A stretch of 64,000 bases of DNA from a virus. A model generated the notes under the pieces. The model was not told the origin of the DNA. It saw only the letters and a list, made by a program, of their open reading frames with translations, and made no database searches. How positions within the stretch are numbered: position 1 is the stretch's first letter; each line of letters starts with the position of its first letter. The DNA lies in IMG/VR virus record IMGVR_UViG_3300027887_000463, positions 9,371 to 73,370 of that record. One strand, 5' to 3'. Below are positions 17,566 to 58,066 of this stretch, one piece after another. Both the position numbers and the translations under genes were made by a program.

Positions 17566-20500
17566 ATGGCTTCTTTCTTATTAAAGAGAACAACAGATAG
17601 CATAGCCTACGGAACCAAAGTTAAAAACGGTAGGTATGTAGTAGGTGCTTATGTTGTCTTATACAACTCCACAACTTCTACCCTTATCGGTCAAACACAG
17701 ACCGATAAATATGGCCGTTGGTACATCATCATTAATACCTCCACACCCGACCCAGGAATCTACCAAGTACGTTTCTACGGTTCCGGATTAATTTCCGCCG
17801 AACCACCTGATGGAGATTGGGAATTTGTTGAGATCGTTGATACCACAGCCGCACAACAGGGCGCTGTTACCTATCGCGGAATCTGGAAAGTTGGAACTCA
17901 GTATTACGGGAGTGCTATATACCATGAAGCTGTTAAAGCTCCTGATGGAAAATATTATTATTCTATAGCTGACAGTCTTGGGGTTCAACCGCCGAACGCT
18001 GGATCCTGGACATATTTCTCCGATCAATTTGCCTCCGTTGCAACCGACCTTCTTTTAGCACAAGATGTTGCTGTAGGAAGAACTATAACTCTTGGTACTG
18101 CTCTTGAAGATGGTGGTGCTGGTGGTATTCTACAAACTGCAGGAGTAACCGGGCTACGTTCTGGTACCGGGGGATTCTACGTTAAAGGTTCTGGACTCAG
18201 TGAACTACGTATAGGTACAGTTGATGGGGCCAACTTAGTAAGTGGCCTTCTATGGGATGGTCCTAATAATATCTTTGAAATTCGTTCCAAGAATTTCTCT
18301 ATAGATCAATATGGAAATGTTACAATCACTGGGCTAATTACTGCCACCTCTGGTCTCATAGGCGGATGGACGATTGGACCAACCTCACTCTATTCAAATA
18401 GTGGTGCTGGTGTTGGTATGTCTTCAGGCGATTGGCCCTTCTATGCCGGAGATACAAATCCCGCTAATGCTGAGTTTAGAGTAAGTAATGCTGGAGCTCT
18501 TTATGCTTCAAATGCTACTATTAGCGGTTCGATTTCTGCAAGTTCTGGGGTTATAGGCGGATGGATTATCGGACCAACATATTTATATTCAACTAATGTT
18601 GGCCTGGCCCCGTATGATTATCCCGTTTTTGCTGGAGCTGATTATAGTTCCCGTGCCTCTGCTCCTTTTAGAGTTAATACAGCTGGCTCTATATACAGCA
18701 TCTCCGGTATTATCGGAGGATGGGCTCTTGATACCAACACACTAACTGCACTTACTAACGGACAGATTCGTACAGGATCTTCTGGAACATATATAACTCT
18801 TGATAGAAATTATCTTCAAAGCTCTACTTATATATCCGGTAATCAAGGATTCAGAATAACATCTTCTACTGCAGATGCTGAGTTTAATAACATTGTAGCT
18901 CGTGGAACTTTCCGAGCATCCGTATTTGCCATTGATGAAGTAAATGCAACTGGCGGAACCATGATGGTTACCGACGCTGCTGAGGTTGTTAGTGGTCTTA
19001 CCACTCCCAACGATCTTAGTACAACTTGGTATTTATGTGCTAGAAAAACCTACACAAACCAAGCAGCCATGTTTGGTGGTCCTGGTACGGCTACGGGCTA
19101 TGTTATAAGACTTAAGTTTGCCGATCAGGCGGTTAACGGAGTTACAGATATTTGGGCTACACGCACCTCAGCTGCAGCTGTAGATGGAGGAACATATTGG
19201 AGATTTACCGTTCAGAATGCTACAGTTAATTCCCAAAATAAGAATATTTATAAAGGTACTGCTGCAGTTGGTTATGGAACTTCTACATCTAAAAAAATAA
19301 TCCTAACCAGTGATTTGGGTGGATCCGCTGTAACTCCTTATATAGATATGTTCACTACAGGATCATCGCCCTGGAATGGTGTAACCACAAATCTTCGTCT
19401 TGGAAATCTTACCGGAATTACCGATCCATCTTATGGAACACTTCCTTCTGGAACTTATGGCCTCTATGCTGATAATGCTTATCTTAAGGGAGCTATTGTA
19501 GCTGCTTCTGGTCTTATTGGTGGATGGAATATTGGAAGTAATTATCTCTACTCTACTGCTGGTAACGGTGAAGGTTTAGCTCCTCTTGATTATCCTTTCT
19601 TTGCTGGAGCACAATATGCATCACGAGCATCGGCTCCCTTTAGAGTTAATACCACAGGAGCTATATATAGTGTATCTGGAATTATTGGTGGATGGAATCT
19701 TACACCTTCACAAATATTTGCACGTTCTCTAGTTGGTAGTGGTATGGTCAGTATGTATGGATTCCAGGCAAGCTCCGATTGGTGGTATGGGGGTTTTGAA
19801 TTAAAAGATTGGGCTACTTGGAGAACCGGAAATAAAGCACGTTACCACGGTTTCTTTGGAATGTCGGATAATGGATCGCCTCCAACTAAACCCGAGATTG
19901 TATTCTATGTAGGAGCTACTACAAATACTTCTCCCCGGTCTGACGCAGCTTTTTATATTGATATGGATGGAGGCATGAGGTTTGGTGGAACTCAAACCCA
20001 GCCTGGAATGACTTGGGATCCGAACACGAATGAATTGACTCTCAGTGGAATAATCACAGCAACTCAAGGAAAGATCGGCGGTTGGAATATAGGAGCGACC
20101 TCTCTTTATGCAGGAACCGGATCGTCTACTGTTGGATTAGCATCCTCGGGAGGCTATGCTATATATGCGGGCTCTGCTACTCCAAGTGCAGCTCCTTTTA
20201 GAGTTGATCCTGCTGGAAATGTTTGGGCAACTGCAGGATTCATTGGAGGGGATGACTCCTCCACAGGATGGGAAATTACTACCGGATCAATAGCAACAAC
20301 ATTAAATGGTGGTGAAATGTTTTTATCCACCGTAAATTTAGAACGCGCATATGCATCAATTCTAGGAATCGATAATTATTTTGCTGGTCTTTGGACTTAT
20401 TATACTGGACCAATCATACCCGGATCTCATGAAGCATATAGTTCGGTAAATGCTTCTACTACATCCAATGTGCCTGTTATATTTGCTGGAGCTGATACTA

Positions 20501-23500
20501 AATATCCTGTTATCGGTACTTCTTCTATTCCTTTTTATGTTGATGCCTACGGAAATTTCTATACAAAAATCACAGAGTATTTACAAACAGCTTATGAAAC
20601 AACCTCTATTTCCGGATTAACCTTAAGCCCAACTACACCAAAGAATATGCGAATCGAGTCGCTGATACCTCGTTCTTTCAATGAGAGTGGTTCAGGAGGA
20701 GGTTTAGTTTATGAGAGCTCGACTGGAGAATATAAATCGTTTACTTATACTAGTGCAAGTGTTACTTGGGGTGGTTTTGACTTTATTTATACATTATTAA
20801 ATTGTACTAGCGATGTTGGAAATATTGTTGTTCCAGTCGGTGGACGCATATTCGCACGCCGTTCCGTTACAACTATTAACGATGGTGGAGCGTTTTCTCT
20901 TTCAACCTATGGCCCAAGAGGTGTTTATATAGGAGGTACTAATGGTAGCAGTATTCCATTATTAAGAGTTGAACAATACGATAGCGATGCGGGAACTGAT
21001 TATCAAAGCCGTGCTGTTGAAATATATCATTACTCAAAATTCCATGGAAGTACACAACCACACTATGCACAATGGATTATTGGCGGAGGTTATGGTTCAT
21101 ATAGAGGATTATCGGTTTATGCGGATTCCACGGGATGGACTCCTACTGCAAGCGGGCAAGATACTATCCGTGGAGTGGAAGCAGATACATATGCCGAAAC
21201 AACGGCTGGATCAAATTATGCGTTGGCAGGAGTGGCTCAGGGCGGAATAGTTGCAGTGGGTATATATGCATCCGCCACTGGTGGTGGGTCTTTAGGTTCG
21301 TACGCCGGTATTTTTGCTAATGCTCCTACTCGCTTTGATAAACAATTACAAATAGCTGAGATTTCTTCCCCTACAACACCTGGAACGGGTTATGGATATC
21401 TTTATGCTAAATCCGATAATCTTATTTACTGGAAGAGCGATGCCGGAATTGAATACGATCTTACTGGAGCATCCTCTGCTTCTGGAATCACTTCCATTAA
21501 CACCCTTACCTCAACCGCTCAAACACTTGTTGTAGGAACAGCGGGTACCGGATTTAATATAGTTTCCACGGGTAGTACCCACACATTTAATCTTCCATTT
21601 GCAGGCATATCCACTAGCGGAATTGTGTCGACTGGAGTTCAAACCTTTAGCGGGCAAAAAACATTTAACAATAATGTTCATATAAATGGAAATTTAGTTT
21701 TTGATGGTACCTACACAATTTATCCTCAGGATGCCACTGTTGCAAATGATTTAACAATAATGGGTGGGGTGGGCTCCGGCTCCGGTGCGAGTGGTGGAAT
21801 ACTTTATTTAATGGGTGGTGAGGGTAATGGTATAGGCGACACCGGTATTGTGTCGATGGCCTATAACGGAACTAGTCTCGGAGGCGTTGTTATTGGTAGT
21901 AATGTGCTTACTGCCGGATATTTACTTGACGTATATGGTGATATACGTGGCTATAATATAAATGCAATAACAGCACTTAAACTTAATGGCGCTGATATTA
22001 ATACAGCAGGAACTCTTTCCAATGTTGCATATCTGAATCAAGCAAATCGGTTTACTGCGCGACAAGGCATATTCTCCGTAGCCCCACAACTTGTAGTTTC
22101 TGGATTGACTAACAGTGAGATTGAGGTACGTTCTACTTCTGGCGGCCCGGCGTCTATAAGCTTTTATAATGGAACAGATTTTTGGCAATTTGGTCATGCC
22201 ACTACGGTTGGATATTATCTATTTCAATATAATTCATCGACCAAGATGTCAATTAACTCGGCCGGACAAATGACTATAAACCGGATAGGTACTCCCACAC
22301 CTTTAGCAACTCTTGATGTTAACGGAAATGCCTACATAGCCACAGGACTTGATGTTCCCGAGGGTCCGGTTCACATAGGCGCCGCTGTAGGAGCTTTCAC
22401 CGCATCAGGAATAACCTTCGACAAGGCTAATCAATCACAGCTAGTTAATGTGTGGGGTATCGATGCTGCCAACTCGACAACATCAAATCCTGGATATTGG
22501 GGAATTTATTCGGTAGATGCTAATGGAAACGCCTCTCAATCATATGATATTCGCGCAACACATGACATTGCAATTAAATATGATACCGATAATACACATT
22601 CAGGAACATTTAAAGTATGGCGAGGAAATACTCTTGGTGGAGGAACCGGAGTATTTACACTTGATGCTACAGGACAAGCAACTTTAGTAAGTGGATTAAC
22701 CTTAGGTACATATTTACAACTTCCAGAAATCTCTGCTCCAACAACCCCATCCTCTGGATTCGGATTGCTCTATGCCAAATCAGATAGCAAGCTCTGGTTT
22801 AAGAGTGATACGGGGCAAGAATATAATCTTACTGCATCTGGGGTAACAGGACCAGCAGGTTCTAATTCATATGTTCAGTATAACGATAATGGTATTTTTG
22901 GAGGAACATCTAATTTCGAATGGGTAAACGCTAGTAACTCGTTGCTCATCACGGGTTCAATGCAAATTAGTAAGGCTACCTCAGGAACAATTTGGGCATT
23001 GAATAGCTTTACAAATGGTTTAGGACGAGTGTTGGAATTAGAAAATTCGTATGCAACAGTGGCGATAGAAGGTGGGCCGCGACAATATTTTCGAGCTACT
23101 CTTACAGGCGAAGGAGGAAACGAAAGCTTTGATCTTTCGGCTATCGCAGGAATTGTTGAAAATGGAGATGCTTTTGATACATATCAAGGTGCTCTGGCCT
23201 TCTATTATTTTGGAGGAGAGGGGACTGCTGTAACTGAAGGAGCACGTCTTGGATCTGATGGTATGTTTAATATGTGGAAAAATGCCAGTGTCTCCGGACT
23301 CATACGAATAAAAGAAATAAATGCTCCAACTACCCCTCCATCAACATATGGTTATTTATATGCAGGAACAGATAGCAAGTTATACTGGGCAAATGATCTT
23401 GGTACTACATACGATCTTACTGCCTCCGGAACTAGTGGTGGAGGTATTTCCTCTGTCGGTTCTCCCGCGGCAACCCAAGTAGCATATTGGGCTTCATCAA

Positions 23501-26500
23501 CAGCCCTAAGCGGTCATATAGGCTTTACTTATCTTCCCGGAACAAGTGCTCTGTCCGTAAGCGGTCTTATTGCTCTTGGATCCATTCCATCTTCAACAGG
23601 TATTCTGAGAATTCCAAATAACAATTCCATAGGATGGAGAAATGCTGCCAATTCAGGTGATTATACACTAGCTCTAAACAGTTCTAATTTATTTGCCTTC
23701 TCAAATAGTTTAACTGTTACGGGGGGTACTACAATTTCTACTACCCACACAGTTACTCAATCTACAATTACCGGCAATACTCCCGCATTCGATGGTTCGG
23801 CAACATGGAATAACTCCGCCGTGACTTTCCGGGGTATTGAGTTTGCAATAACAACGGGAGGTGCGGGGTATCAAACTACTTCTACACTTCTTCGGTTAAG
23901 AACAGATTCAGGCGATCGATTCTATGTCCAAGCCAATGGAGCAACACTTATTGGTTTGGCCGGGTCAGATTTAACAATTAACAATTCAACCGTCTATGCT
24001 ACTGGAGCAACCGTTTATACTGGCGATAACCTGCATGTGGGTGTATCAGATGGTCAAGCGGGGATAACTTTTCATGGAGCAAGCTCTGCAAATAAATGGG
24101 GTTTTTATAAACTTACCAGTACCTATGACTTTGTACTTTATAATTATACAAGTACTAGAAACGTCTTAAGATTTGCCGAAGCAGCAGGAAATCTAACTAC
24201 CCTATACGCCAACATGGTGATTGAGGGTACAACCGGATTCAACGCTAATGGCGAAACTGCACAGCTAAGTATTGGCGATACTAACCATTATGCTAAAGCA
24301 GTGTATGGTTCTGGACTTGCTTATGTAACCGCTACAAATGAAGACTTTACATACTTTGCTGGATCCACCTTCATATATCGTTTAGGTGGAACAGGTCTTC
24401 TCACTATTAAAGAATTAACAGCTCCTACAACAACAGCTTTGTCAGGATATGGATATCTCTATGCCAATACTGCTGATGGAAAATTGTATTGGAAAGATGA
24501 TGCTGGTACAGTATATGATCTAACTCTGGGAAGTTCGCTTCCTGCTGACAATATAACAGGATTAGGCGCTTCGAATCGAGTAGCTTATTTTACTGGAAAT
24601 TATACCATTTCTGGAAATAATAATTTCACTTACAACGGAAGTACCATTTCTGTAAGCGGTCTACTCGATTATAATTATACTACGGCTGATACTCATTGGA
24701 ATTTGGGAACACGTGCTCTTACTCTTCATGGTACGGGCGGGGCCGATGTTGGTTATACACAAATCGCAATGTATGGCGATTCAACTGGTGAGCGTCCAGG
24801 ATTCGTTATGGGCAGATTGGGGCCTGAATTTTACATTAATGTTGTTAACACAACTAACAGAGTCTTTTCAAACTCCTTCGCTGGACTAACTACGATGATC
24901 AGTGTTAGCGGCCTGGCCCTTGGTACACAGTCTGGTAATGCGGACCTAATGGTATTTGGACAAAAAGTAGGTATCAATAGAACTCCAACCGCGTATGCAT
25001 TGGAAGTAGATGGGGATATTAATCTAGAGGCGGGCCATATACTGCGCTATGCGGGAACAGATGCATTTGCTGGATATACTCCTACTTCTAGAACACTAAC
25101 GCTTACTCCTGGAGCGGGAATTGGCATTGCTCCTGGAGGAGCACAAGATCTTTCAGCTAATCGATCTTGGACAGTAACAGTATCTGGTACAATCGGGGCG
25201 ACTGCAACATGGAATGGTCAGGTTATATCTTCAACATATCTTGATGCAAATATAGCTTATAAAAATGCTAGCGCTAATATAACAGCCGATTGGATTTTTG
25301 ATGGCTCAACTTATCAGGGTATAACTGTTGGAGGGGAATCAGAAAACGGTGTTGTTAGATTTAAAACCGTAGGATCATATGGAACACTAACGTCTCTTGA
25401 CCTAGCTTCAGATTATACCTGGTATCTTCCAAATGCAAGCGGAGTTATTGCTCTCACTAAGGATCTTAACGCTTATTCTCCAGCAACTAGAACACTTACA
25501 TTAGTTCCGGGAGGAGGGGTTGGAATAACTCCTGGAGGAGCACAAGATCTTTCAGCTAATCGATCTTGGACCTTAACTGCGTCTGGAATAACTGTACTTC
25601 AAGGAGGTACGGGGGCCACAACACTAACTGGATGGGTCTATGGCAACGGCAGTAGTGCCATGACCGCCACAACAACCCCAACATTTGGGGCGGGAAGTAC
25701 TTGGAATGGTAACGCTATCTCGAGTACATATCTTGATGCTAATATAGCTTATAAGAATGCTGCCAATACATTCTCTCTGTCCCAAACAATTTCTGCAGAT
25801 CTTATTTTCTCCGGAGCCAATCGTACTATTTACTCGCTCGATGCTGCTACGGCAAGTGCGCTATATATAAGAGCAGGCTCATCATCAACTTCAGGCGGTG
25901 CTGGTGCTAATCTCTTTGTATGCGGCGGCCCAGGTAATGGGGCTGGAACTGATGGTAATGTTCTTCTTGCTTGGGATGGAGGCAGTATAGGTGCCGTAGC
26001 CATTGGACAAGGAACTGTTACAGCCACTTATTTACTGGACGTAGCTGGTTCTATCCGATCAAGTTCAAGTATTAATGCCGTAACATCATTCTTATTAAAT
26101 GGCGCTAGTCTTAATACGGGTGGAACTTTATCCAATGTTGCTTATAAAGATGCCACCAACCTCTTTACAGGAGCAATGAATGGCTTTTCTCAGACAGTAT
26201 CTGTTAGCGGACTATTAGATTATAACTATACAGCAGCAGACACTCGATGGAATCTTGGAACACGTGCTGTAGTTATAATAGGTACAGGTGGTTCAGATGT
26301 TGGTTATAATCAATTACAATTATTAGGAGGGTCAACTGGAGAGCGTCCGGGCCTTTCTATAGGACGTGCCGTAGGAGAATTAGGTATTTCTATAGCTAAT
26401 CAAACTAATAGAATCTTCTTAAACAGTGCTGCAGGTATTGCAACATTCTTTGATACTACCGGTATTCTCCTTGGTACGCAATCTGGAAATGCTGATCTGG

Positions 26501-27291
26501 CAATCGTTGGACAAAAAGTTGGTATTAATAAAACTCCAGTGACATATGCTCTTGAGGTCGATGGCGATGTAGACTTGGATAGTACTCACGTATATAGATT
26601 GGCTGGGGCGGATATTAATACGGCTGGCACATTAACTAATGTAGCGTATGAAAATCAGGCAAATACCTTTACTCAAAATAATCTATTCAATGGAACGGTT
26701 AATACCTTCTCCAGCAACGTTGTAGTCAGCGGAACATTGACAGCAAGAGCTACCAAGAATTATTTTGGTACCGCAAATTCTACTATATCCGTTAATGGTA
26801 TGTCGGTATATGGGTCTGGAAATACACGTGTAGTTGTTGAAGCTACGTCTGGTAATGCTGAAATTAATTTAGTACAAAGCACCAATACCTGGGCTATTTA
26901 TACTGGAGCAGGTTCTCTATTCTTCTACAATGGAGGAAATAGGGTTGAAATAGATACCTCTGGAAATGCTATCTTTGCCGGAGATGTTACAGCAAATGGT
27001 TCTCCATCCGATATGGTGTTGAAGATGAACATCAAGGATATGAAGCCTGCTCTGGATAAGATTCTGTCTATGCGACCCGTTGAATTTGACTGGAATCCAG
27101 AAAAGATTGAACGAAGAAAAGGACATGATGTGGGTCTTATTGCCCAAGAGGTTGAGAAGATTGCTCCAGAGTTGGTAACAACTGGGCAGGATGGTATCAA
27201 GAGAATTCATTACGATAAGGCAATACCACTTCTTATCGCAGCTATAAAAGAACTAAAGGATAGGTTAGACAATGTCGGTAGAGCTGAATAA
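17566..27291 (+). CDS. giant tail fibre protein with C-terminal S74 intramolecular-chaperone domain
   Basis: 3241 aa. The C-terminus SDMVLKMNIKDMKPALDKILSMRPVEFDWNPEKIERRKGHDVGLIAQEVEKIAPELVTTGQDGIKRIHYDKAIPLLIAAIKELKDRL matches the Peptidase_S74 (endosialidase-type chaperone) pattern. The upstream part consists of many fibre-type repeats. Confidence 0.8.
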   Translation: MASFLLKRTTDSIAYGTKVKNGRYVVGAYVVLYNSTTSTLIGQTQTDKYGRWYIIINTSTPDPGIYQVRFYGSGLISAEPPDGDWEFVEIVDTTAAQQGAVTYRGIWKVGTQYYGSAIYHEAVKAPDGKYYYSIADSLGVQPPNAGSWTYFSDQFASVATDLLLAQDVAVGRTITLGTALEDGGAGGILQTAGVTGLRSGTGGFYVKGSGLSELRIGTVDGANLVSGLLWDGPNNIFEIRSKNFSIDQYGNVTITGLITATSGLIGGWTIGPTSLYSNSGAGVGMSSGDWPFYAGDTNPANAEFRVSNAGALYASNATISGSISASSGVIGGWIIGPTYLYSTNVGLAPYDYPVFAGADYSSRASAPFRVNTAGSIYSISGIIGGWALDTNTLTALTNGQIRTGSSGTYITLDRNYLQSSTYISGNQGFRITSSTADAEFNNIVARGTFRASVFAIDEVNATGGTMMVTDAAEVVSGLTTPNDLSTTWYLCARKTYTNQAAMFGGPGTATGYVIRLKFADQAVNGVTDIWATRTSAAAVDGGTYWRFTVQNATVNSQNKNIYKGTAAVGYGTSTSKKIILTSDLGGSAVTPYIDMFTTGSSPWNGVTTNLRLGNLTGITDPSYGTLPSGTYGLYADNAYLKGAIVAASGLIGGWNIGSNYLYSTAGNGEGLAPLDYPFFAGAQYASRASAPFRVNTTGAIYSVSGIIGGWNLTPSQIFARSLVGSGMVSMYGFQASSDWWYGGFELKDWATWRTGNKARYHGFFGMSDNGSPPTKPEIVFYVGATTNTSPRSDAAFYIDMDGGMRFGGTQTQPGMTWDPNTNELTLSGIITATQGKIGGWNIGATSLYAGTGSSTVGLASSGGYAIYAGSATPSAAPFRVDPAGNVWATAGFIGGDDSSTGWEITTGSIATTLNGGEMFLSTVNLERAYASILGIDNYFAGLWTYYTGPIIPGSHEAYSSVNASTTSNVPVIFAGADTKYPVIGTSSIPFYVDAYGNFYTKITEYLQTAYETTSISGLTLSPTTPKNMRIESLIPRSFNESGSGGGLVYESSTGEYKSFTYTSASVTWGGFDFIYTLLNCTSDVGNIVVPVGGRIFARRSVTTINDGGAFSLSTYGPRGVYIGGTNGSSIPLLRVEQYDSDAGTDYQSRAVEIYHYSKFHGSTQPHYAQWIIGGGYGSYRGLSVYADSTGWTPTASGQDTIRGVEADTYAETTAGSNYALAGVAQGGIVAVGIYASATGGGSLGSYAGIFANAPTRFDKQLQIAEISSPTTPGTGYGYLYAKSDNLIYWKSDAGIEYDLTGASSASGITSINTLTSTAQTLVVGTAGTGFNIVSTGSTHTFNLPFAGISTSGIVSTGVQTFSGQKTFNNNVHINGNLVFDGTYTIYPQDATVANDLTIMGGVGSGSGASGGILYLMGGEGNGIGDTGIVSMAYNGTSLGGVVIGSNVLTAGYLLDVYGDIRGYNINAITALKLNGADINTAGTLSNVAYLNQANRFTARQGIFSVAPQLVVSGLTNSEIEVRSTSGGPASISFYNGTDFWQFGHATTVGYYLFQYNSSTKMSINSAGQMTINRIGTPTPLATLDVNGNAYIATGLDVPEGPVHIGAAVGAFTASGITFDKANQSQLVNVWGIDAANSTTSNPGYWGIYSVDANGNASQSYDIRATHDIAIKYDTDNTHSGTFKVWRGNTLGGGTGVFTLDATGQATLVSGLTLGTYLQLPEISAPTTPSSGFGLLYAKSDSKLWFKSDTGQEYNLTASGVTGPAGSNSYVQYNDNGIFGGTSNFEWVNASNSLLITGSMQISKATSGTIWALNSFTNGLGRVLELENSYATVAIEGGPRQYFRATLTGEGGNESFDLSAIAGIVENGDAFDTYQGALAFYYFGGEGTAVTEGARLGSDGMFNMWKNASVSGLIRIKEINAPTTPPSTYGYLYAGTDSKLYWANDLGTTYDLTASGTSGGGISSVGSPAATQVAYWASSTALSGHIGFTYLPGTSALSVSGLIALGSIPSSTGILRIPNNNSIGWRNAANSGDYTLALNSSNLFAFSNSLTVTGGTTISTTHTVTQSTITGNTPAFDGSATWNNSAVTFRGIEFAITTGGAGYQTTSTLLRLRTDSGDRFYVQANGATLIGLAGSDLTINNSTVYATGATVYTGDNLHVGVSDGQAGITFHGASSANKWGFYKLTSTYDFVLYNYTSTRNVLRFAEAAGNLTTLYANMVIEGTTGFNANGETAQLSIGDTNHYAKAVYGSGLAYVTATNEDFTYFAGSTFIYRLGGTGLLTIKELTAPTTTALSGYGYLYANTADGKLYWKDDAGTVYDLTLGSSLPADNITGLGASNRVAYFTGNYTISGNNNFTYNGSTISVSGLLDYNYTTADTHWNLGTRALTLHGTGGADVGYTQIAMYGDSTGERPGFVMGRLGPEFYINVVNTTNRVFSNSFAGLTTMISVSGLALGTQSGNADLMVFGQKVGINRTPTAYALEVDGDINLEAGHILRYAGTDAFAGYTPTSRTLTLTPGAGIGIAPGGAQDLSANRSWTVTVSGTIGATATWNGQVISSTYLDANIAYKNASANITADWIFDGSTYQGITVGGESENGVVRFKTVGSYGTLTSLDLASDYTWYLPNASGVIALTKDLNAYSPATRTLTLVPGGGVGITPGGAQDLSANRSWTLTASGITVLQGGTGATTLTGWVYGNGSSAMTATTTPTFGAGSTWNGNAISSTYLDANIAYKNAANTFSLSQTISADLIFSGANRTIYSLDAATASALYIRAGSSSTSGGAGANLFVCGGPGNGAGTDGNVLLAWDGGSIGAVAIGQGTVTATYLLDVAGSIRSSSSINAVTSFLLNGASLNTGGTLSNVAYKDATNLFTGAMNGFSQTVSVSGLLDYNYTAADTRWNLGTRAVVIIGTGGSDVGYNQLQLLGGSTGERPGLSIGRAVGELGISIANQTNRIFLNSAAGIATFFDTTGILLGTQSGNADLAIVGQKVGINKTPVTYALEVDGDVDLDSTHVYRLAGADINTAGTLTNVAYENQANTFTQNNLFNGTVNTFSSNVVVSGTLTARATKNYFGTANSTISVNGMSVYGSGNTRVVVEATSGNAEINLVQSTNTWAIYTGAGSLFFYNGGNRVEIDTSGNAIFAGDVTANGSPSDMVLKMNIKDMKPALDKILSMRPVEFDWNPEKIERRKGHDVGLIAQEVEKIAPELVTTGQDGIKRIHYDKAIPLLIAAIKELKDRLDNVGRAE
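18345..20260 (+). repeat. degenerate intragenic repeats (SGxIGGW...LYS / APFRVN..G.IY) in the fibre gene; coordinates approximate
   Basis: Copies seen in the translation are SGLIGGWTIGPTSLYS, SGVIGGWIIGPTYLYS, SGIIGGWALDTNTL, SGLIGGWNIGSNYLYS, SGIIGGWNLTPSQIF and QGKIGGWNIGATSLYA. They are interleaved with APFRVNTAGSIYS, APFRVNTTGAIYS and APFRVDPAGNVWA. Confidence 0.7.
21355..24525 (+). repeat. four dispersed copies of a ~36-aa motif within the fibre gene; coordinates approximate
   Basis: The four copies are EISSPTTPGTGYGYLYAKSDNLIYWKSDAGIEYDLT, EISAPTTPSSGFGLLYAKSDSKLWFKSDTGQEYNLT, EINAPTTPPSTYGYLYAGTDSKLYWANDLGTTYDLT and ELTAPTTTALSGYGYLYANTADGKLYWKDDAGTVYDLT. Confidence 0.75.
25132..25570 (+). 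repeat. 40-bp perfect direct repeat marking a larger segmental duplication inside the fibre gene
   Basis: cctggaggagcacaagatctttcagctaatcgatcttgga occurs at 25132-25171 and again at 25531-25570. Larger diverged duplicated blocks are ~24650-25060 vs ~26197-26610 (VSVSGLLDYNYT...ALEVDGD) and ~21750-22060 vs ~25860-26170 (...YLLDV.G.IR...GTLSNVAY). Confidence 0.85.
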
Positions 27292-27820
27292 TAACTTTGA
27301 TTCGAGTACTAAGGAAGGTATCCGTATGACATCGGACGTAGAGTTCTTTAGAGATTCCGCGAATGTCCTCAGAACTCCCGATAATCTTACAATAGATCTG
27401 GATATCTATCAAGATGATGTTGTGTATCCATATGTATCATATAGTTTTGTTACAGGACTAACTACAATTACTATTAAAGTTAGAAGATTTGATGCCGCTG
27501 ATTCGGCAAATAACTATCATCACGTTCATTGGTGGATTAGTAGTTCTTCGTATGGAGCGCCTGCCACATTGCCAAACTATGGTTCAGGTCATACATTAGC
27601 ATTGACCTCGGGAACACGAACGTCGGGAACTGCACTTCCCATTACTTTAAATACAACGAATACCGGGCTACAAACACACATTACTACAAGCAACGAAATT
27701 ATTACTCTAACAATAACCGCTACCGATGGTGGGACTGGAAATCAAGCTACAGGTTATATTATGACAGAAGTACAGGGCGTATTATACTCGACTTTATTCT
27801 ATTATGACGACTCCGTATAA
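27272..27820 (+). CDS. fibre-associated paralog family protein, copy 1
   Basis: 182 aa. It shares EG(I/L)(Q/R)(M/I)TSDVE(F/L)(F/Y)R..ANV..TPD...I..DIYQDDVVYPY, H.HWW.S.S..G.P and a C-terminal EVQG..Y block with the ORFs at 28223 and 28729. It overlaps the fibre gene end by 20 nt. Confidence 0.6.
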   Translation: MSVELNNNFDSSTKEGIRMTSDVEFFRDSANVLRTPDNLTIDLDIYQDDVVYPYVSYSFVTGLTTITIKVRRFDAADSANNYHHVHWWISSSSYGAPATLPNYGSGHTLALTSGTRTSGTALPITLNTTNTGLQTHITTSNEIITLTITATDGGTGNQATGYIMTEVQGVLYSTLFYYDDSV

Positions 27821-28232
27821 AAATATATTAGAAAAGCTTCAACAAGACGGCATACGCTTTGCCCTTACCGGAAGCTATATCATTCGCGATCTCGTTGAAG
27901 GACCACGAAAGGATCTGGATATTGTAGTTCATCCAGACGACGAAGAGAAGCTTGTTCAAACTGGGCTGGGAATACACGCTGTTTATGAGAGCCCAGAAAA
28001 ACTTTCCGGCCTTTTTCAAGTCAGGAAACAGTACATCATAGCTACAGAAGATGGTCCCTTAGATTGTATTATTCAGCTGTATGAGGGCTTTACATATACA
28101 GATGAAGCGGAGTTTGATATAGATCCGGATACGGGGTTTCCCTGTATGAGGCGCATGAGATTATATGATCTCTATATAACAAGATCTAAGGGTAAGAAGT
28201 TTAAAGATAGGGCTAAATTGATATGTCCGTAA
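27804..28232 (+). CDS. minimal nucleotidyltransferase-fold protein (tentative)
   Basis: 142 aa. LTGSYIIRDLVEGPRKDLDIVV fits the pol-beta-type NTase signature G-S-x(12)-D-x-D, with a downstream acidic residue (LDCII). It interrupts the paralog array. Confidence 0.4.
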   Translation: MTTPYKNILEKLQQDGIRFALTGSYIIRDLVEGPRKDLDIVVHPDDEEKLVQTGLGIHAVYESPEKLSGLFQVRKQYIIATEDGPLDCIIQLYEGFTYTDEAEFDIDPDTGFPCMRRMRLYDLYITRSKGKKFKDRAKLICP

Positions 28233-28741
28233 TACTGTCAAATGACCTGGGAGGAAGCACGTTAGAAGGCATTCAGATGACTTCTGATGTTGAGTTGTAT
28301 AGAAGCACCGCCAATGTGGGAAGAACCCCGGATAATTTTTCCATTGCCACCGATATCTATCAAGATGATGTCGTGTATCCCTATCTAACAGTCGGGGGAA
28401 GTGATAGCACACGAACTATCACCATCAAATGTCGAAAATTTAATGGTTCCGACTCTGCCAACAATAGAATGGTTGTTCACTGGTGGACAAGTACAAGTGC
28501 GTATGGAACTCCGGGATTTCTGGCGGGAGACCTTGGCTTCACCCCAAGTTTAACAGCAGGTACAAGCCTTACAACTCTCAGTTTATCAGCATTGAATACA
28601 ACGCTTACTGATTCAAACGAAACTATTACAGTATCTATAACAAGCTCAAACAATGATAATCAACAAACCTTTTATTTTATGGCTGAGGTACAGGGCATTG
28701 TCTATGGAACAAGCACAACTATTTTTATTTGGGTAGCCTAA
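28223..28741 (+). CDS. fibre-associated paralog family protein, copy 2
   Basis: 172 aa. Paralog of 27272 and 28729, with the same conserved N-terminal half and the AEVQGIVYGTS tail. Confidence 0.6.
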   Translation: MSVILSNDLGGSTLEGIQMTSDVELYRSTANVGRTPDNFSIATDIYQDDVVYPYLTVGGSDSTRTITIKCRKFNGSDSANNRMVVHWWTSTSAYGTPGFLAGDLGFTPSLTAGTSLTTLSLSALNTTLTDSNETITVSITSSNNDNQQTFYFMAEVQGIVYGTSTTIFIWVA

Positions 28742-29265
28742 TGTCACTTATACTATCAAATAATCTTGGGGGAAGTACGCTGGAAGGACTACAAATCACC
28801 TCTGATGTGGAGTTCTATCGAAGCGCGGCTAATGTCCTTCATACTCCAGACAGTCTATCCATTGACTCCGATATATATCAGGACGATGTTGTATATCCAT
28901 ATCTTCTTGTCGGGGGTACACAGCAATCCAGAACTTTCACTATTAAAGTTAGAAAGTTTGATGGAAATGATAGTGCTAATACAAGACACCAGGTCCACTG
29001 GTGGACTAGTACCTCGTCCTGGGGTGCTCCAAGTATTCTTACAGGAGGTTCTGGTATTTCAATAGCCATTACCACCGGAACAAATCATGGAACGGTAAGT
29101 GGAAGTGCTTTGAATACATCCTGGACCGATAGTAATGAAACGATTGTCATTACCGTAACTACATCGAATACTTCAGGCTCCTCAACATTGTATTTCCATG
29201 CTGAGGTTCAGGGAATAGCCTATCAAACGAGTGGAACCGTATATACAGTAGCATCGAGCGCTTAA
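28729..29265 (+). CDS. fibre-associated paralog family protein, copy 3
   Basis: 178 aa. Paralog of 27272 and 28223. It overlaps copy 2 by 13 nt. Confidence 0.6.
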   Translation: MGSLMSLILSNNLGGSTLEGLQITSDVEFYRSAANVLHTPDSLSIDSDIYQDDVVYPYLLVGGTQQSRTFTIKVRKFDGNDSANTRHQVHWWTSTSSWGAPSILTGGSGISIAITTGTNHGTVSGSALNTSWTDSNETIVITVTTSNTSGSSTLYFHAEVQGIAYQTSGTVYTVASSA

Positions 29266-29266
29266 T

Positions 29267-30187
29267 ATGAAAATATATCTTCAACATATAACACCACATT
29301 GGATGAGCGGGGTAGTAACTCACAAACAGGATCTTCATGACGTTCTCGGAAGACGTGGCCATCAAATGGTTCACTCTATTGAGGAGCCGCACGACATAGC
29401 GTTTATTTACAATAACAAACCATCGAACATGGCCCCATCGCTCTTCCATCTTCACAACTATAATATACGGTCATATTATGAACAGCTGAAACCATATAAC
29501 TATTATAGTGTGAATAGCCAGTTTCAGAAACAACATTTCTATCTCATGGATGGGTTTGATCCTGACAAGGTATTCGTTCTTCCCAACTTTGTGGATGAAC
29601 GTAAATATACCCCCACGCATTGTACACAAAGGGAGAATAGTATTGTCCTCCTTGGCCGCGTACAGGAAGAGAACTTTGATCGTATTCGTACCTCGATCAT
29701 GGCTATGCAGTATCTCCCCGACTATACTCTTGATATTGTAGGTTGGGTGTTCGATTCAGGAAGAGACTTTGTGAACAACCTTATCACGGAGACGGGTGTG
29801 AAGAACGTCCGGGTCCTGGGCGAGTTGAGGGATATGGAGAAAATCGAGTGTATATGCTCCCATCAAATAGGGATAGGTGTGGGCAGGGCTATGATGGAGA
29901 TGACGCTCCTGGGGCTTCCTGTGCTCGTTTACGGGCACTCCTGGGGAGGTTGGATGACTCCTGAGCTTATCAATAAGCTTAGATTTGACAACTTTTCGAC
30001 TCGATCCCTGGCTAAAATTCCAGACACGGAAATGGTGGAGAGAATACTCACCTCCATAAAAGATCCCCGAGGCCTCAATAGGGCAGTAGCGTTTGAGGAG
30101 TTTGGCCTTATGAACAACGTCTGGAAATATGAAAAGGCATTTGAGGAAGTGCGGAAATTAATAGGAGGAAACGATGGCATTCAATAA
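29267..30187 (+). CDS. glycosyltransferase, GT-B (group 1)-like (tentative)
   Basis: 306 aa. The stretch LLGRVQEENFDRI...YTLDIVGWVFDSG...VRVLGEL...GIGVGRAMMEMTLLGLPVLVY resembles the C-terminal half of group-1 glycosyltransferases. Nt 29740-29960 is visibly GC-richer than the flanks. Confidence 0.4.
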   Translation: MKIYLQHITPHWMSGVVTHKQDLHDVLGRRGHQMVHSIEEPHDIAFIYNNKPSNMAPSLFHLHNYNIRSYYEQLKPYNYYSVNSQFQKQHFYLMDGFDPDKVFVLPNFVDERKYTPTHCTQRENSIVLLGRVQEENFDRIRTSIMAMQYLPDYTLDIVGWVFDSGRDFVNNLITETGVKNVRVLGELRDMEKIECICSHQIGIGVGRAMMEMTLLGLPVLVYGHSWGGWMTPELINKLRFDNFSTRSLAKIPDTEMVERILTSIKDPRGLNRAVAFEEFGLMNNVWKYEKAFEEVRKLIGGNDGIQ

Positions 30188-30422: not shown

Positions 30423-30451
30423 TTGATACTTTTATATTTTTTTAGTATAAT
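30423..30451 (+). promoter_or_regulatory. sigma70-like promoter TTGATA-17 nt-TATAAT
   Basis: TTGATA at 30423-30428, a 17-nt spacer, then a consensus TATAAT at 30446-30451. It sits in a 61-nt AT-rich gap upstream of the ORF at 30481. Confidence 0.55.
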
Positions 30452-36016: not shown

Positions 36017-36394
36017 TTAGGAGATTGGTTTTTTATTATTTGGCAGATAATGAATAACCGTTGAGAGATATAGAACTATAGGAATTACATACCAGAACCA
36101 CATTAATGAGGATGTGTATATTATAAACAATAAAGCATAGCTCGCTATTCGAGCGCTAATAAGATGTAATAAACTAGTTAGACCCACCTCAGGCAACATT
36201 GTATATTGTAGAAGAAGCTGTCCAACAAAAGAATCATATTCAAATTCCTTCTCACCAATCAATTTTTTAAATAGTACGATAGCTATAACTAGTTCCGTTA
36301 CTATGCCAGTAATACATGCGGTTAGAAGATCCAGACGTATTACATAAGCTACAAGAGCTAATATGCCACTATATGGAATCCGTATCTTAAGCAT
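36017..36394 (-). CDS. multi-pass membrane protein
   Basis: 125 aa with several hydrophobic helices (ILALVAYVIRLDLL..., ASYALLFIIYTSSLMWFWYVIPIVLYL). It overlaps the upstream glycosyltransferase stop. Confidence 0.5.
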   Translation of the reverse strand: MLKIRIPYSGILALVAYVIRLDLLTACITGIVTELVIAIVLFKKLIGEKEFEYDSFVGQLLLQYTMLPEVGLTSLLHLISARIASYALLFIIYTSSLMWFWYVIPIVLYLSTVIHYLPNNKKPIS

Positions 36395-37685
36395 ACTCCT
36401 TCAGCCATCCAACCATTTTCTCGCGCTTATCTTCCCATAGAAAGTTTTTATAGACACGATCAATGGCCGCCTCATTGGCGACTCGTTTTTTACCGTTGGC
36501 CACCCACTTTTGATATTCTTTTTCGAGTGCTTCGACAAATAGTCTGGTGTCTACTAGTGGTCGCATATGACCATTATCCATAGCGATATTAATGTGGGCA
36601 CGATTAGGAATAATGTGTCCTGTATCTCCAAGCATTTCCGGAATAGCAGAATTCTTGGGAGCTATAGATGTAGTTCCTACTGCAGCTGACTCAATGAGAG
36701 AAAGGCCTACTCCTTCTCCAAGCGTTGTACTTAGATTCACATCAGCGATATTATAAAGAATATTGAGCTCTTCATCTGTAATAGGATTAGCATAAACATT
36801 GCCAGCAAAAGCAGCAATGACCTTATTAACATCAGAATTCTCAAACCCGGCATTCATCATATGTGCTTGTAGGATATTTGCTCTGCCAGGACCCATCATA
36901 CGCTCTTGTGTATTACAGTGAAGATATAACATAACATCTTCGTGCCCCGGATGTTCCTCAATAGCATCGGAGGTTGGACAATCATTAAGATCACAATGAG
37001 GTCTACTTGCTAGATAGGTATTTCCGCACTTACATACTTTATATCCTTTGGAGAATAGGGCCCATGCCCGTAAAGCACCTGGTAGGTGTTTACGTGGTTG
37101 GAATCTATTGTTAGAGATTGCTAGGAATTTTTCATCCCATCCCTTATCTTTCCTTAATTGATATGTAGCTGCGGCAGGAAGCGGGAAAAATACATCTGTA
37201 TTTACTCCATGATATAAATGATCAATATGAACTTTTTCTAGTTCCGGAATAGCTTCTTTAATAACACGAACGCCCCATTCAGTGTAAGTAATTAGCTTAT
37301 TGAGTTGGAGTAACGTATTGCCCCAAGTTCTAGATACCGGGGTACCGTCGATAGGAAAATAAGCTACGATAGGAACCTTATCGTTCCACTTTTTGATAGT
37401 AGGAAGAATAAAATCGATGTTGAAAACATCTTGGAAGAGAAGGATAACATCTGGATTCCAGTCAGGTAGTACTCGATGCATGCGGTCGAGTCCTAGAAGA
37501 TCTTGGAGATCAACAGGATAGATAAAATACTTCGATGTATCATATCTATGGATACCGTAATAGTTAACACCAAGGATGGCTACTTCGAAGTCTTTGTGGA
37601 GATCTCTAAAAAGGTTTTCGGCAACTATACCGAAGCCCGTTTTTACAGTTGGTGAGTCGCACCAGATCAGTAATCTTTTTTTCAC
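36387..37685 (-). CDS. glycosyltransferase family 1 (GT-B)
   Basis: 432 aa. LSTTLGEGVGLSLIESAAVGTTSIAPKNSAIPEMLGD matches the E-G-F/V-G-L...E-A/S-x-A-x-G motif of group-1 glycosyltransferases. GTG start. Confidence 0.6.
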   Translation of the reverse strand: MKKRLLIWCDSPTVKTGFGIVAENLFRDLHKDFEVAILGVNYYGIHRYDTSKYFIYPVDLQDLLGLDRMHRVLPDWNPDVILLFQDVFNIDFILPTIKKWNDKVPIVAYFPIDGTPVSRTWGNTLLQLNKLITYTEWGVRVIKEAIPELEKVHIDHLYHGVNTDVFFPLPAAATYQLRKDKGWDEKFLAISNNRFQPRKHLPGALRAWALFSKGYKVCKCGNTYLASRPHCDLNDCPTSDAIEEHPGHEDVMLYLHCNTQERMMGPGRANILQAHMMNAGFENSDVNKVIAAFAGNVYANPITDEELNILYNIADVNLSTTLGEGVGLSLIESAAVGTTSIAPKNSAIPEMLGDTGHIIPNRAHINIAMDNGHMRPLVDTRLFVEALEKEYQKWVANGKKRVANEAAIDRVYKNFLWEDKREKMVGWLKEYA

Positions 37686-46265: not shown

Positions 46266-46294
46266 TTGACTTTTAATTGCTTTTTTCGTATCAT
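46266..46294 (+). promoter_or_regulatory. sigma70-like promoter TTGACT-17 nt-TATCAT of the RNAP gene
   Basis: TTGACT at 46266-46271, a 17-nt spacer, TATCAT at 46289-46294, then AAAAAGGTG and the ATG at 46314. The track ORF start (TTG at 46266) is the -35 element itself. Confidence 0.6.
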
Positions 46295-46313
46295 AGACAA
46301 AAAGGTGTACTAC

Positions 46314-49300
46314 ATGGTAAATAAGCTAGATCCAGGTCTCCAGTCTAAGAACATCCAAGAAGCTATAGCAAATGTGATTAAATCACAGTTTCCTATTCAG
46401 GGTCGATATCAAACCTTGGAGCTTGTTGGGCCCCTAACAATTCAAGATGATTTAGATGATCAAGATTTTCCTGCTCAGCGTGAAGCCAAGCTCAGCGGAA
46501 GATCCTGGCAAGTTCCTGTGTACGGAACTTTCCGCCTCACTGATAATAAAACTGGAAATGTTATTGATGAAGCTAAGGATATAAAGGTCGCCAATATTCC
46601 TAAGCTTACGGATCGTTTCTCCATGCTCATCGAAGGTAATGAATATACTACGATGAATCAATTTCGTCTCAAGCCAGGAATTTATACTCGTAAAAAAGCT
46701 AACGACGAAATGGAGTCTCAATTTAATCTTGCCGTAGGTTATAACTTCAAAATGATGATGGATCCGGCAGATGGTATCTTCTATTTATATATTGGAAACC
46801 AGAAGTTCCACCTGTATACCCTGCTTCGTGCTTTTGGCGCCTCAGAAAACGAGATGATTAAATCCTGGGGCAATGCTCTGTTTGATAAAAACAAAAATGC
46901 TGGCCTCAACGAAGAGGGAAAAGAAATACCTCTGATGTGGGAGAAGTTGAAGAGACAAAAACTTCCATACGAAGAAGCTCTCAATGCTTTAAAGGATTAT
47001 TTCGATAAGACCAGAATTGATGTTGATACCACAGAAATTACCCTTGGTCGTGGAGTAGATCGTGTTACTCCAGATGCATTACTTCTTACTTCATCTAAAC
47101 TCTTACGTGTTCTACGTGGAGACGAGCCAGAAGATGAGCGCGATAGCCTAGTCTTCAAAGATCTCTATACCGTCGATGATCTTGTTCAAAAACATATCGA
47201 GAAGCGTGCTCCGAATATTCAAAAGAATCTTTTAGCCAGAACAGACCATAAGCAATCAATAAGAGAAATCATCTCACCAGATACTTATACCAAAGATATT
47301 AAGTCTTTTTTCACGCAAGGTGACTTAAGTAACCCATCCCCACAGACTAACCCCGTCGAGATGTTGGGCGAGTGGCGGAAGACTACTATCACAGGCACGG
47401 GTGGTATTCAGAGTTCACATGCCATCACCTTCAAAACTCGTGACATTCACCCAACACACTTGGGTTTTGTTGATCCTCTTAATACTCCAGAGTCGGGTAA
47501 AGTAGGTGTAACCCTTCCTCTAGCTATGCATGTTGAGAAACATGGAAAAGATATTAAGACACGATTGGTTACTCCAGAAGGAAAAGATATATTTGCCACA
47601 CCAGTAGAATTCTACAAAATGAAGGTCGGATTTCCAGATCAGCATGTTGAGGGTAAAGCTAAAGGCACCATGATTAAGGCGATGTATCGTGGGCAATCTG
47701 TGGTTCTTCCTGCCAAAGATATTGATGCATATATTCTTGACCCAACAAGTATGTTTGCTTGGACAACTAACCTTGTTCCATTCTTAGGACATAACTCGGG
47801 TAACCGCGCCCTCGTGGCCGCTAAAATGGTAACTCAAAGTGTCCCATTGAAAGCTCCAGAAACTCCTCTGGTAAAAGTTGTTGGACAAACCGGAGAAACG
47901 CTTGATTCAGTATTAGGCACGTTCTTAAAACCTAAGGTTCCTAAAGGATTTGGAACAGCCACTGTAATGAAGATCGATGATGACTACATTCATATAAGAA
48001 ATGAAAAGGGCGATCGTCATAAAGTTGGTTTATACAAAGACTTCCCGCTAAATCAAGAATCTTTTATTAATTCACGAGTTCTAGTTGATATCGGGCAGAA
48101 AGTCAAGGAGGGTGAACCTCTAGCGGATACTAACTTTTCAGACAAGAGTGGAAACTTTGCTCCTGGTGTAAATGTCAATGTTGCATATATGCCTTGGCAT
48201 GGATATAACTACGAGGACGGTATTGTTGTTACAGATTCTCTTTCCAAACGTTTTACATCAACTGTAATGTTGAAAAAGAATCTGCAGGTAGGGAAGGATA
48301 GTATTCTAGACCTAAAGAAATTTGTTTCATATTATCCTAAAGAATTGACGGTTGCCAACATTGAGAAAATGGATGATACAGGAGTAATAAAGGAGGGCGT
48401 TCGTATTGAGCCCGGTGAAACACTTATTGCTCATCTAAGCAAAATGGATCTAACGGATACACAAAAGATCCTAAAAAATATGAATCGTGTATTATCCAAT
48501 CCTTATCGTAATCAATCTCTTACCTGGGATGGAGAAAATCCAGGTGTTGTAACCCACGTTAGAAAAGTAGGAAATACTTATCAAATTCATGTGAAGGAAG
48601 AGCAACCACTCAAGGTTGGGGATAAGCTAGCCGCTCGGTATGGGGATAAAGGTATTGTTACGAAGATCATTTCAGATTCCGAAGCACCCCATACCAAAGA
48701 TGGAAATCGTATAGATATGATGGTTAATATTCATGGTGTAGTAGGCCGTATGAATATGGGGCAGCTACTTGAAGCAGCTGCTGGTCGAATCGCTATGAAG
48801 ACAGGCAAGCCTTTCTTAGTAAAGAACTTTGCTGACCGAGATTATCTATCTGATATTATGGCTGAAATGAAGAAGTTAAAACTTGAACCTAATGAGACGC
48901 TTCTGGATGGAGCAACGGGTAAGCCATTTGAAAAACCAGTCTTCTGGGGCAATAAGCATTATCTAAAGCTGATGCATGTAGTTGATCATAAGTACAAAGC
49001 TCGTGGAATCCCCGGATCTTATGATGCAAATGAGCAACCCGTCCATGGCGAGGTCGGAGGACAATCAGTTGATCCTCTACAGATGTATTCGTATCTTGCG
49101 CACGGTGCACGAGAGAATCTATATGAATTTACCGCGGTGAAAGGTCAGAAGAATGACGAGTATTGGCGTGCGCTACAGCTCGGTCTTCCGCCTCCTCCAC
49201 CCCAAAGAAACTTTGTCTTTGATAAGTTCATTAATTATATCAAGGCAGCTGGGGTTAATGTTGAGAAGAATGGAACTCGGTTTAAACTATTCCCAGCCAC

Positions 49301-58044: not shown

Positions 58045-58066
58045 AAGGGCACGGTTAGGTGCCCTT
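58045..58066 (-). terminator. rho-independent terminator overlapping the Pnkp-like stop codon
   Basis: AAGGGCAC-GGTTAG-GTGCCCTT. On the - strand it is followed by TTTTATTTAC. The TAA stop (58055-58057) sits in the loop. Confidence 0.6.

Follow-up and report, generated by a model that had tools for sequence, protein, structure and literature searches.

Three tandem Ig-like paralogs, candidate fibre-tip modules, and a conserved nucleotidyltransferase-like gene behind a giant phage tail fibre

The locus described here lies in a stretch of 64,000 nucleotides (nt), hereafter the window, taken from the viral record IMGVR_UViG_3300027887_000463 of IMG/VR (positions 9,371 to 73,370). It comprises three paralogous genes, c1, c2 and c3, and an open reading frame (ORF) of 142 amino acids (aa), which together follow a giant tail-fibre gene. 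The window is contained in a 132,641-bp JGI metagenome contig, and the genome is that of a contractile-tail-type phage. The genes of the block are, in order:

17566..27291, + strand: tail-fibre gene, 3,241 aa, with a Peptidase_S74 C-terminus
27272-27820, + strand: paralog c1, long type, 182 aa, with a tip insertion of ~8 aa (ALPITLNTTNTGLQ); its orthologue P0008 (L009) is 66% identical
27804..28232, + strand: 142-aa ORF, possible Pol-beta-type nucleotidyltransferase (NTase), with G23-S24, D37, D39 and D87
28223-28741, + strand: paralog c2, short type, 172 aa, with the same three-part architecture as c1; its orthologue P0003 is 88% identical
28741-29265, + strand: paralog c3, short type, 174 aa; the copy used for modelling
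29267..30187, + strand: GT-B/GT4-like putative glycosyltransferase (GT), 306 aa
30174..30419, + strand: 81-aa ORF, the last gene of the block, with a homologue 3' of the GT gene in L013

All these genes overlap or abut. The last 20 nt of the fibre gene overlap c1, the 142-aa ORF shares 17 nt with c1 and 10 nt with c2, the ATG of c3 shares one base with the stop codon of c2, and the GT-like gene, separated from c3 by 1 nt, overlaps the 81-aa gene by 14 nt. The start of c3 was placed at ATG 28741 and not at TTG 28729 (four codons too long), because every homologue begins with MS(I/V/L)ILS and the gene callers chose the ATG. Promoter- and terminator-like sites within the block do not exceed the shuffled expectation, and the best promoter-like site (30423-30451, 11/12 matches) is found just 3' of it. 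Judged from the gene layout, the block from the fibre to the 81-aa gene is one translationally coupled late module. The fibre label of the 3,241-aa ORF is justified, since it lies 3' of the baseplate J/wedge genes and ends in Peptidase_S74 (PF13884, aa 3148-3205, E 1e-13), an intramolecular chaperone domain that is expected to be cleaved off the fibre after folding.

Architecture and divergence of the three paralogs

An earlier note on this stretch had described three paralogs behind the fibre gene, with a conserved N-terminal half and tail and diverging middle and C-terminal segments, and a 142-aa ORF whose ends overlap both neighbours. All of this is borne out here. The pairwise identities of c1, c2 and c3 are 49-62%, the mean column identity is 70%, and the local hidden Markov model E-values range from 1e-37 to 1e-59, a similarity well in excess of chance. 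The motifs quoted for the conserved parts are invariant in the three copies (TSDVE, ANV, TPD, DIYQDDVVYPY, HWW.S.S..G.P and EVQG..Y).

Each paralog is built of three parts. The first is a family-specific N-terminal peptide of ~20 residues (MSxILSNNLGGSTxEGIQ), the second is one 'TNLYRSAANxLKTDD' shaft-repeat unit (LYR unit) with a DIYQDD(V/I)VYPY linker, and the third is an immunoglobulin (Ig)-like beta-sandwich of eight strands and ~120 residues. The sandwich was modelled with AlphaFold2 as a c3 monomer, using an alignment of 24 sequences; residues ~50-170 form the eight beta-strands with a predicted local distance difference test score (pLDDT) mostly above 90. The closest compact fold matches of the model are invasin/intimin domains, and the other matches found with Foldseek in the PDB are generic Ig-like domains. 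In BFVD, the model matches uncharacterised Caudovirales proteins (best E 1.7e-6). None of the curated collections searched (Pfam, PHROGs, NCBIfam, PADLOC) has a match to the paralogs.

The paralogs are under purifying selection. The proportion of synonymous differences (pS) is about 0.65-0.85 in all comparisons and thus saturated, and that of nonsynonymous differences (pN) is far lower throughout. The per-site check of the divergence shows that the nonsynonymous divergence (dN) is 0.12-0.25 in codons 1-55 and 0.42-0.79 from codon 96 to the end in the same pairs, i.e. 2-4-fold higher in the distal part (0.49 versus 0.125 in the N-terminal third for c2/c3, and 0.42 versus 0.12 for c1/P0008). The column entropy agrees, with peaks at residues 91-128, 134-156 and 159-170, all in the latter half of the sandwich; its conserved parts are strands 1-3, the FDGNDSANN loop and the HWW strand. 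The protein of the N-terminal third is conserved despite saturated synonymous sites (pS 0.71-0.86), which points to selection on this third and not to gene conversion. Recent gene conversion was rejected for the array, in which no DNA-level repeats are present and the synonymous sites are saturated between the copies.

Other copies of the paralog modules, either the LYR unit or the tip, are not present in the window, the giant fibre included. The giant fibre carries repeats of its own, namely four 'PTTP..G(Y/F)G(Y/L)LYAKSD.KLYWKSD.G.EYDLT' units (DNA copies at 21365, 22733, 23321 and 24422) and large internal duplications (e.g. 24649-24800 / 26200-26351, 72%, and 24918 / 26469), and this pattern suggests that it grew by segmental duplication.

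The tip-domain family and the history of the array

Only 17-19 relatives of the paralogs were returned by a word-indexed search, whereas an exhaustive profile search, which covered 1.84 billion representatives, gave 145 clusters at E <= 1e-3, 83 of them at <= 1e-10. In a local re-scoring, 145 proteins were counted that contain at least 70% of the tip domain. The domain ends no more than 5 residues from the C-terminus in 142 of these 145 carriers and never occurs in more than one copy per protein. The carriers are 91-3,496 aa long (50 are shorter than 200 aa, 55 have 200-400 aa, 23 have 400-1,000 aa, and 17 at least 1,000 aa). Several longer ones have fibre-like features: P0038 matches Pfam Collagen and many PHROG tail-fibre families, P0040 PHROG tail spike and virion structural protein, P0035 PHROG tail protein, and P0048 the Pfam Phage tail repeat. 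In the mid-sized relatives (190-380 aa), "NTA(I/V)G" adhesin-like repeats and a "LDVNGNTIITGSLTVTG" neck precede the tip domain.

The LYR repeat, in its full form "(D)TNLYRSAAN(T/V)L(K/R)TDDSL.V.G", builds whole proteins elsewhere. P0101 consists of 12 units, and the repeat is also present in P0119, P0155 and the collagen-containing P0141; a Pfam search gave no family for it. At the C-terminus of P0028 (962 aa), an LYR unit is followed by ~25 residues including DIYQDDIVYPY and then by the tip ("...DTNLYRSTANVLKTDDNLEVALDIYQDDIVYPYITIAGSTSTRTITTKCRKFDDNDSANN..."). The spacing from LYR unit to tip is exactly 25 aa in P0028, P0103 and P0064, and the arrangement is nearly identical in P0080, P0089 and P0038. 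Since several long proteins end in the same succession of LYR unit, linker and tip, each paralog can be described as a fibre end of ~155 residues that has become detached and carries an N-terminal peptide of its own of ~20 residues.

The earlier note had offered alternative tips, adhesins or assembly factors as roles for the paralogs, with an Ig-like or adhesin fold as a check. The confident sandwich model and the terminal position of the domain favour tips or adhesins. The position of the paralogs directly 3' of the fibre gene, with coupled translation, is the classical one of Tfa-type proteins, and they could be fibre assembly chaperones (like lambda/Mu Tfa or T4 gp38/gp57) instead of adhesins. 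We consider this quite unlikely, as the giant fibre has its own intramolecular S74 chaperone, and the folding of one fibre does not need three diverged copies. Moreover, Pfam and PHROGs reveal no similarity to Tfa or gp38, and about two thirds of the family carry the domain as the covalent end of a longer protein, in several cases fibre-like, which misfits a chaperone acting in trans.

Tailed phages commonly carry Ig-like domains as accessory decorations of their structural proteins. The sandwich of the paralogs is a generic one, and one family member, in L003, is not beside tail genes; the paralogs might be non-essential, Hoc-like Ig decorations or weak carbohydrate-adherence proteins on the capsid, tail or shaft, with no role in host range. 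This is unlikely in our opinion. Ig domains that serve as decoration often lie inside a protein or in tandem, while the tip domain is terminal, single and preceded by a fibre-shaft repeat, the array is located in the fibre block and not in a head module, and the distal half of the sandwich changes faster than the rest, as is expected of a ligand-contacting surface.

The domain is also found in phages that otherwise share nothing with the window. Relatives of the window did not turn up among GenBank phages, by DNA or by protein, or in IMG/VR, and a scan of JGI metagenomes gave a single fragment only (L010). With L001 and L003 (jumbo-phage contigs of 327 kb and 138 kb) the tip domain is the sole thing in common, with no synteny otherwise. 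The tip of c2 is 41% identical to that of P0009, from an unrelated 327-kb phage contig, which is about as close as c2 is to c1. In L001, the tip-domain gene (10001-10711) is 3' of genes of 831, 1,890 (DUF5122) and 302 aa. L010 (1-2969) comes from another metagenomic phage and has a c2-like tip gene (76% identity over 97 aa), 3' of which lie three unrelated genes and not the GT-like one, namely a lipoprotein-like ORF of 198 aa and ORFs of 165 and 333 aa, the latter two identified by none of the tools used; the tip gene thus occurs also outside the tip/GT neighbourhood. On these comparisons, the tip module is one that moves between unrelated phages.

The copies fall into a long type (182 aa, with the ~8-aa insertion: c1, P0008, L011a and L012b) and a short type (170-174 aa: c2, c3, P0002, P0003, P0006 and P0007). 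The sequences cluster by type across lineages, and the duplication is therefore older than the split of these phages. The orders of the genes in the relatives, read from short contigs, are the following:

Window: fibre - long - 142-aa - short - short - GT
ERZ925370 (L009): fibre - long - 142-aa...
ERZ925370 (L011): long - short - GT
SRR24579364 (L012): fibre - short - long...
SRR24579364 (L013): ...142-aa - short - GT - 81 aa
JGI 3300075153: ...142-aa - short (P0003) - next copy

The window has one long and two short copies, whereas two long and one short were deduced for ERZ925370. As the make-up of long and short copies appears to differ between lineages, a heterotrimer with one chain each of c1, c2 and c3 is unlikely. 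Four further samples hold copies of the window that are 99.96-100% identical, with no array differences across the five samples.

Two mechanisms of targeted diversification were considered for the array and rejected. The first is a diversity-generating retroelement (DGR), for which the window offers a single reverse transcriptase (RT):

40479-41363, - strand: retron-type RT, 294 aa, the only RT of the window (Pfam RVT_1 E 4e-23; PADLOC RT_III-A E 3.9e-73)

This enzyme has the motifs NAQKH (NAxxH), LPQGAPTSP (QGxxxSP), YADD and ITGVIV, and is thus of the retron type. No pair of template and variable repeats is present in the 64 kb, the sole repeat families being internal to the giant fibre, and the array is invariant among the five samples. 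An Rfam search of 39500-42700 gave no msr/msd RNA. The neighbours of the RT gene (38391-40551, - strand) are unannotated ORFs of 154 and 294 aa and an HNH-like ORF of 129 aa (38391-38780). The second mechanism is the switching of an invertible segment (Mu Gin / P1 Cin type), against which stand the location of all copies on one strand and the lack of inverted repeats of at least 14 nt with plausible geometry, both in 27200-29300 and throughout the window.

The 142-aa gene within the array

The relatives of the 142-aa protein comprise only one cluster among 5.8 billion proteins, and further homologues were read from L009 and L013. The gene is present in the array of four lineages, i.e. the window, that of P0018 (95% identical), L009 (~68%) and L013 (a C-terminal fragment, ~62%). 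Its 5' neighbour is a long-type or unseen copy, and its 3' neighbour is a short-type copy. Compared with the L009 homologue, pN is 0.22 and pS 0.83 (pN/pS ~0.27). The GC content and the GC content at third codon positions (GC3) match those of the neighbouring genes. By its pattern of conservation, the ORF is a real gene under purifying selection and a long-standing resident of the module rather than a recent insertion, so that to speak of an interrupted array, as the earlier note did, is misleading.

A mobile antitoxin-like gene, also suggested at that time, fits poorly for the same reason. The small size and the minimal-NTase-like motif do resemble those of MNT antitoxins, and morons are often located near tail-fibre genes. 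An MNT-type antitoxin or a defence/anti-defence moron inserted in the array is nevertheless extremely improbable: Pfam and PADLOC searches of the block gave no HEPN or other toxin partner and no defence model, both neighbours are Ig-like tip paralogs, the gene resides in four diverged lineages with pN well below pS and with the base composition of its neighbours, its overlaps indicate coupled translation, and it has no promoter or terminator of its own above background. Thus, no signature of an MNT-HEPN pair is found at the locus, nor one of a DGR target or an invertible segment.

With regard to the NTase call itself, the G23-S24-x12-D37-x-D39 motif is indeed present. The motif residues of FALTG23S24-x12-D37LD39IV ... 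PLD87CII do not vary between the window protein and its homologues in P0018 and L009, and D87 is also conserved in L013, so that the five signature residues are preserved at an overall identity of 60-68%. The top Pfam match of each of the three full-length homologues is, independently, a family of the Pol-beta clan over the same region (residues ~6-66). An hhalign comparison with Cca (1.7% probability) places G23S24, D37 and D39 in register with the catalytic G7G8, D21 and D23 of that enzyme.

Other observations weigh against an enzyme. The Pfam matches are all below the gathering threshold (GA) of 21 bits: NTP_transf_2 (PF01909) scores 13.1 bits (E 0.13), and PF10706 (ANT(2'')-like) 13.0 and 16.7 bits (E 0.12 and 0.008). 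The hhalign comparisons with ANT(2'')-Ia (0.2%) and Cca are non-significant; the ANT(2'')-Ia sequence compared is 100% identical to the annotated aadB, and the Cca sequence was the N-terminus of the E. coli enzyme. Searches with the 142-aa protein against PDB sequences, NCBIfam and PADLOC gave no match, and its AlphaFold model, based on a two-sequence alignment, has a pLDDT of 33.7 and is unusable. The loose G-S-x12-D-x-D motif arises in 9% of shuffled versions of this protein, and background proteins contain it at a rate of ~0.14 per 142 aa, while a strict form (hG[GS]-x9-13-[DE]h[DE]h with a later carboxylate strand), defined post hoc after the sequence had been seen, was matched by 6 of 20,000 shuffled sequences and by 0 of 206 background proteins. 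Finally, the L009 homologue has an in-frame TAA at codon 47 (L009 1118-1126), where the window has GAA (27942-27944); apart from this codon its ORF is intact and conserved, and the TAA is either a recent inactivation or a sequencing/read error.

These observations would suit a lineage-specific structural or assembly protein without enzymatic activity, in which the NTase-like motif is fortuitous or a relic. We regard this as possible, if rather doubtful, because three homologues converge on Pol-beta families over one region, with a best E of 0.008, the strict motif is rare by chance, and the five signature residues are invariant among diverged sequences. An NTase fold of the 142-aa protein is, in turn, quite probable. 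As to its identity as an NTase, the conserved motif with a third carboxylate is there, significance in a curated family is not reached, and the identity is only suggestive.

Proposed role and known systems

We think it fairly probable that the paralogs are separately encoded distal fibre modules (mini-fibres or tips) with alternative host binding, accompanied by a 142-aa protein that is probably an accessory of the Pol-beta NTase fold. Three features expected of tip modules are present: the location in the tail/fibre cluster with coupled genes, an exchangeable domain at the extreme C-terminus, and a conserved proximal part combined with a faster-evolving distal one. In this proposal, a module of repeat, linker and sandwich, which elsewhere is the covalent end of fibres of up to ~3,500 aa, would have been detached and triplicated behind the S74-ended giant fibre. 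The conserved N-terminal third may dock each copy at a common site of the virion, on the fibre or the baseplate, the mini-fibres or tips would probably be trimeric, and the faster-evolving second half of the sandwich may contact structures of the host surface. Two or three binding specificities could then be displayed in parallel, which would broaden or stabilise adsorption, and the tips would act beside the giant fibre, whose own mature tip would become exposed after S74 cleavage. The paralogs would be co-expressed with the fibre in one late block, together with the 142-aa ORF, a conserved block accessory and probably a small Pol-beta-fold NTase with an intact carboxylate triad, and the GT-B-like gene.

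Some points count against this proposal. With saturated synonymous sites, omega is not estimable, and the faster change of the distal half does not amount to a test of positive selection. About a third of the family members have fewer than 200 aa, which in some cases may be due to truncated gene calls. The tip gene of L003 (10001-10885) has queuosine/nucleotide-metabolism genes on one side and a family-B DNA polymerase gene on the other, with no tail neighbourhood. The N-terminal ~50 residues of c3 are modelled at low confidence (pLDDT ~50), and trimerisation and docking are conjecture. More generally, the analysis establishes that the copies are paralogs, their architecture and fold class, the terminal position of the domain across the family, the age of the duplication, the purifying selection and the conserved neighbourhood, whereas we infer the presence of the paralogs in the virion, their oligomeric state, the docking through the N-terminus, host binding and any enzymatic activity from the genes.

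The GT-like gene is found directly 3' of the array also in L013 (79% aa identity) and L011 (74%), and its family matches are below threshold (Pfam Glyco_transf_4 E 4.9e-4; NCBIfam Agl16 E 6.7e-5). A second GT-B-type glycosyltransferase-like gene is located at 36387-37685 (- strand; Glycos_transf_1 E 3.6e-7), so that the late module has a GT-like gene on either side; the two may serve to glycosylate the virion or the receptor. It is a matter of speculation whether the GT-like and NTase-like proteins modify the serine/threonine-rich tips or the fibre. A complete tip cassette, in which the detached ends dock non-covalently on the S74-cleaved fibre by means of their common N-terminal peptide and shaft unit, and a co-translated NTase-fold enzyme and a GT-B covalently modify tips or fibre by nucleotidylylation and/or glycosylation, is very unlikely in our estimate. 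It would mean that the phage devotes a pathway to modifying the adsorption apparatus of its virion, and we know of no such pathway described for phage fibres. The only link between NTases and fibre exchange found in the literature concerns the CCA-adding enzymes of T7-like phages, which are encoded outside the fibre module (PMC7693777). The NTase-like and GT-like genes locked in the block are candidate, unproven enzymes for modification of the adsorption apparatus.

The remainder of the window contains further genes of note. The genome has its own sigma factor, a sigma-70-like protein encoded at 6469-7182 (+ strand; Sigma70_r3 E 9e-8; PHROG sigma factor E 7e-10). An RNA polymerase fusion of 2,031 aa is encoded by one ORF with a TTG start (46266-52361, + strand), with beta domains Rpb2_3 and Rpb2_6 at aa 359-928 and a beta' part with Rpb1_1, 2, 4 and 5 at aa 1112-1913. 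Across 42663-45380, 53792-56017 and 58055-60223 (all - strand) lie a MoxR AAA+ gene (bpMoxR E 1e-46) paired with a vWA-domain gene, a gene for a ClpB/Hsp104-like double-AAA+ protein, and a Pnkp/Rnl-type RNA repair gene, in which AAA_33, Metallophos and RNA_lig_T4_1 are fused (kinase-phosphoesterase-RNA ligase).

If the proposal is correct, the paralogs define a C-terminal fibre-tip domain that is widespread yet uncurated: it comprises ~145 clusters at 50% identity and has no counterpart in Pfam or among the annotated PHROG families. Such a domain could improve the annotation of receptor-binding proteins (RBPs) in metagenomic and jumbo phages. The same distal module would then occur in two states, as a part of long fibres and as duplicated mini-genes that stand alone, with a bearing on the evolution of multivalent host recognition and on the engineering of swappable tips.

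Among known systems, the 142-aa protein is like the minimal Pol-beta NTases in the sub-threshold match of its N-terminal 66 residues and in the invariant motif with a later hDhhh strand. It is unlike them in having no HEPN partner, a C-terminal half that does not resemble that of ANT(2'')-Ia, and few relatives, all inside the fibre module. A conserved NTase-like ORFan within the array is a minor oddity. The fold of the paralog tip can be likened to the bacterial Ig-like (Big) domains of invasin and intimin. The giant fibre is comparable to T5 pb1 (the L-shaped fibre) and the K1F endosialidase, which also end in a self-cleaving S74 chaperone; this likeness covers the upstream fibre only, the paralogs being devoid of an S74 domain, and to our knowledge no downstream family of tip paralogs has been described for T5 or K1F.

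In T2/T6-type phages, gp38 supplies the host-specific tip of the fibre, and in Mu, P1 and P2 this is done by an alternative C-terminal segment. The window resembles the gp38 that sits on the gp37 tip, and the fibre ends of Mu, P1 and P2, in having a small separate gene or segment after the main fibre. The paralogs show no similarity to gp38 in sequence or fold, and, unlike in Mu and P1, the copies are all on one strand and not switched, with no invertible segment or inverted repeats.

The closest parallel is with the multi-RBP ('branched') phages CBA120 (TSP1-4), G7C (gp63.1/gp66), phi92 and K1-5/SP6, in which tandem RBPs are encoded near the tail genes. Common to both are tandem units in which the N-terminal part, for attachment (putatively so in the window), is conserved and the distal part, for binding, diverges; in those phages the units are displayed together and widen host recognition. 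The RBPs of those phages are large tailspikes with an enzymatic beta-helix and T4 gp10-like adaptor domains, whereas the units of the window have 172-182 aa, are paralogous to one another, and carry an Ig-like tip on a single shaft repeat. The result is of use for annotation and for the study of RBP modularity and would not surprise a specialist: the locus functionally resembles the known multi-RBP systems, and is an informative annotation result rather than a new kind of system.

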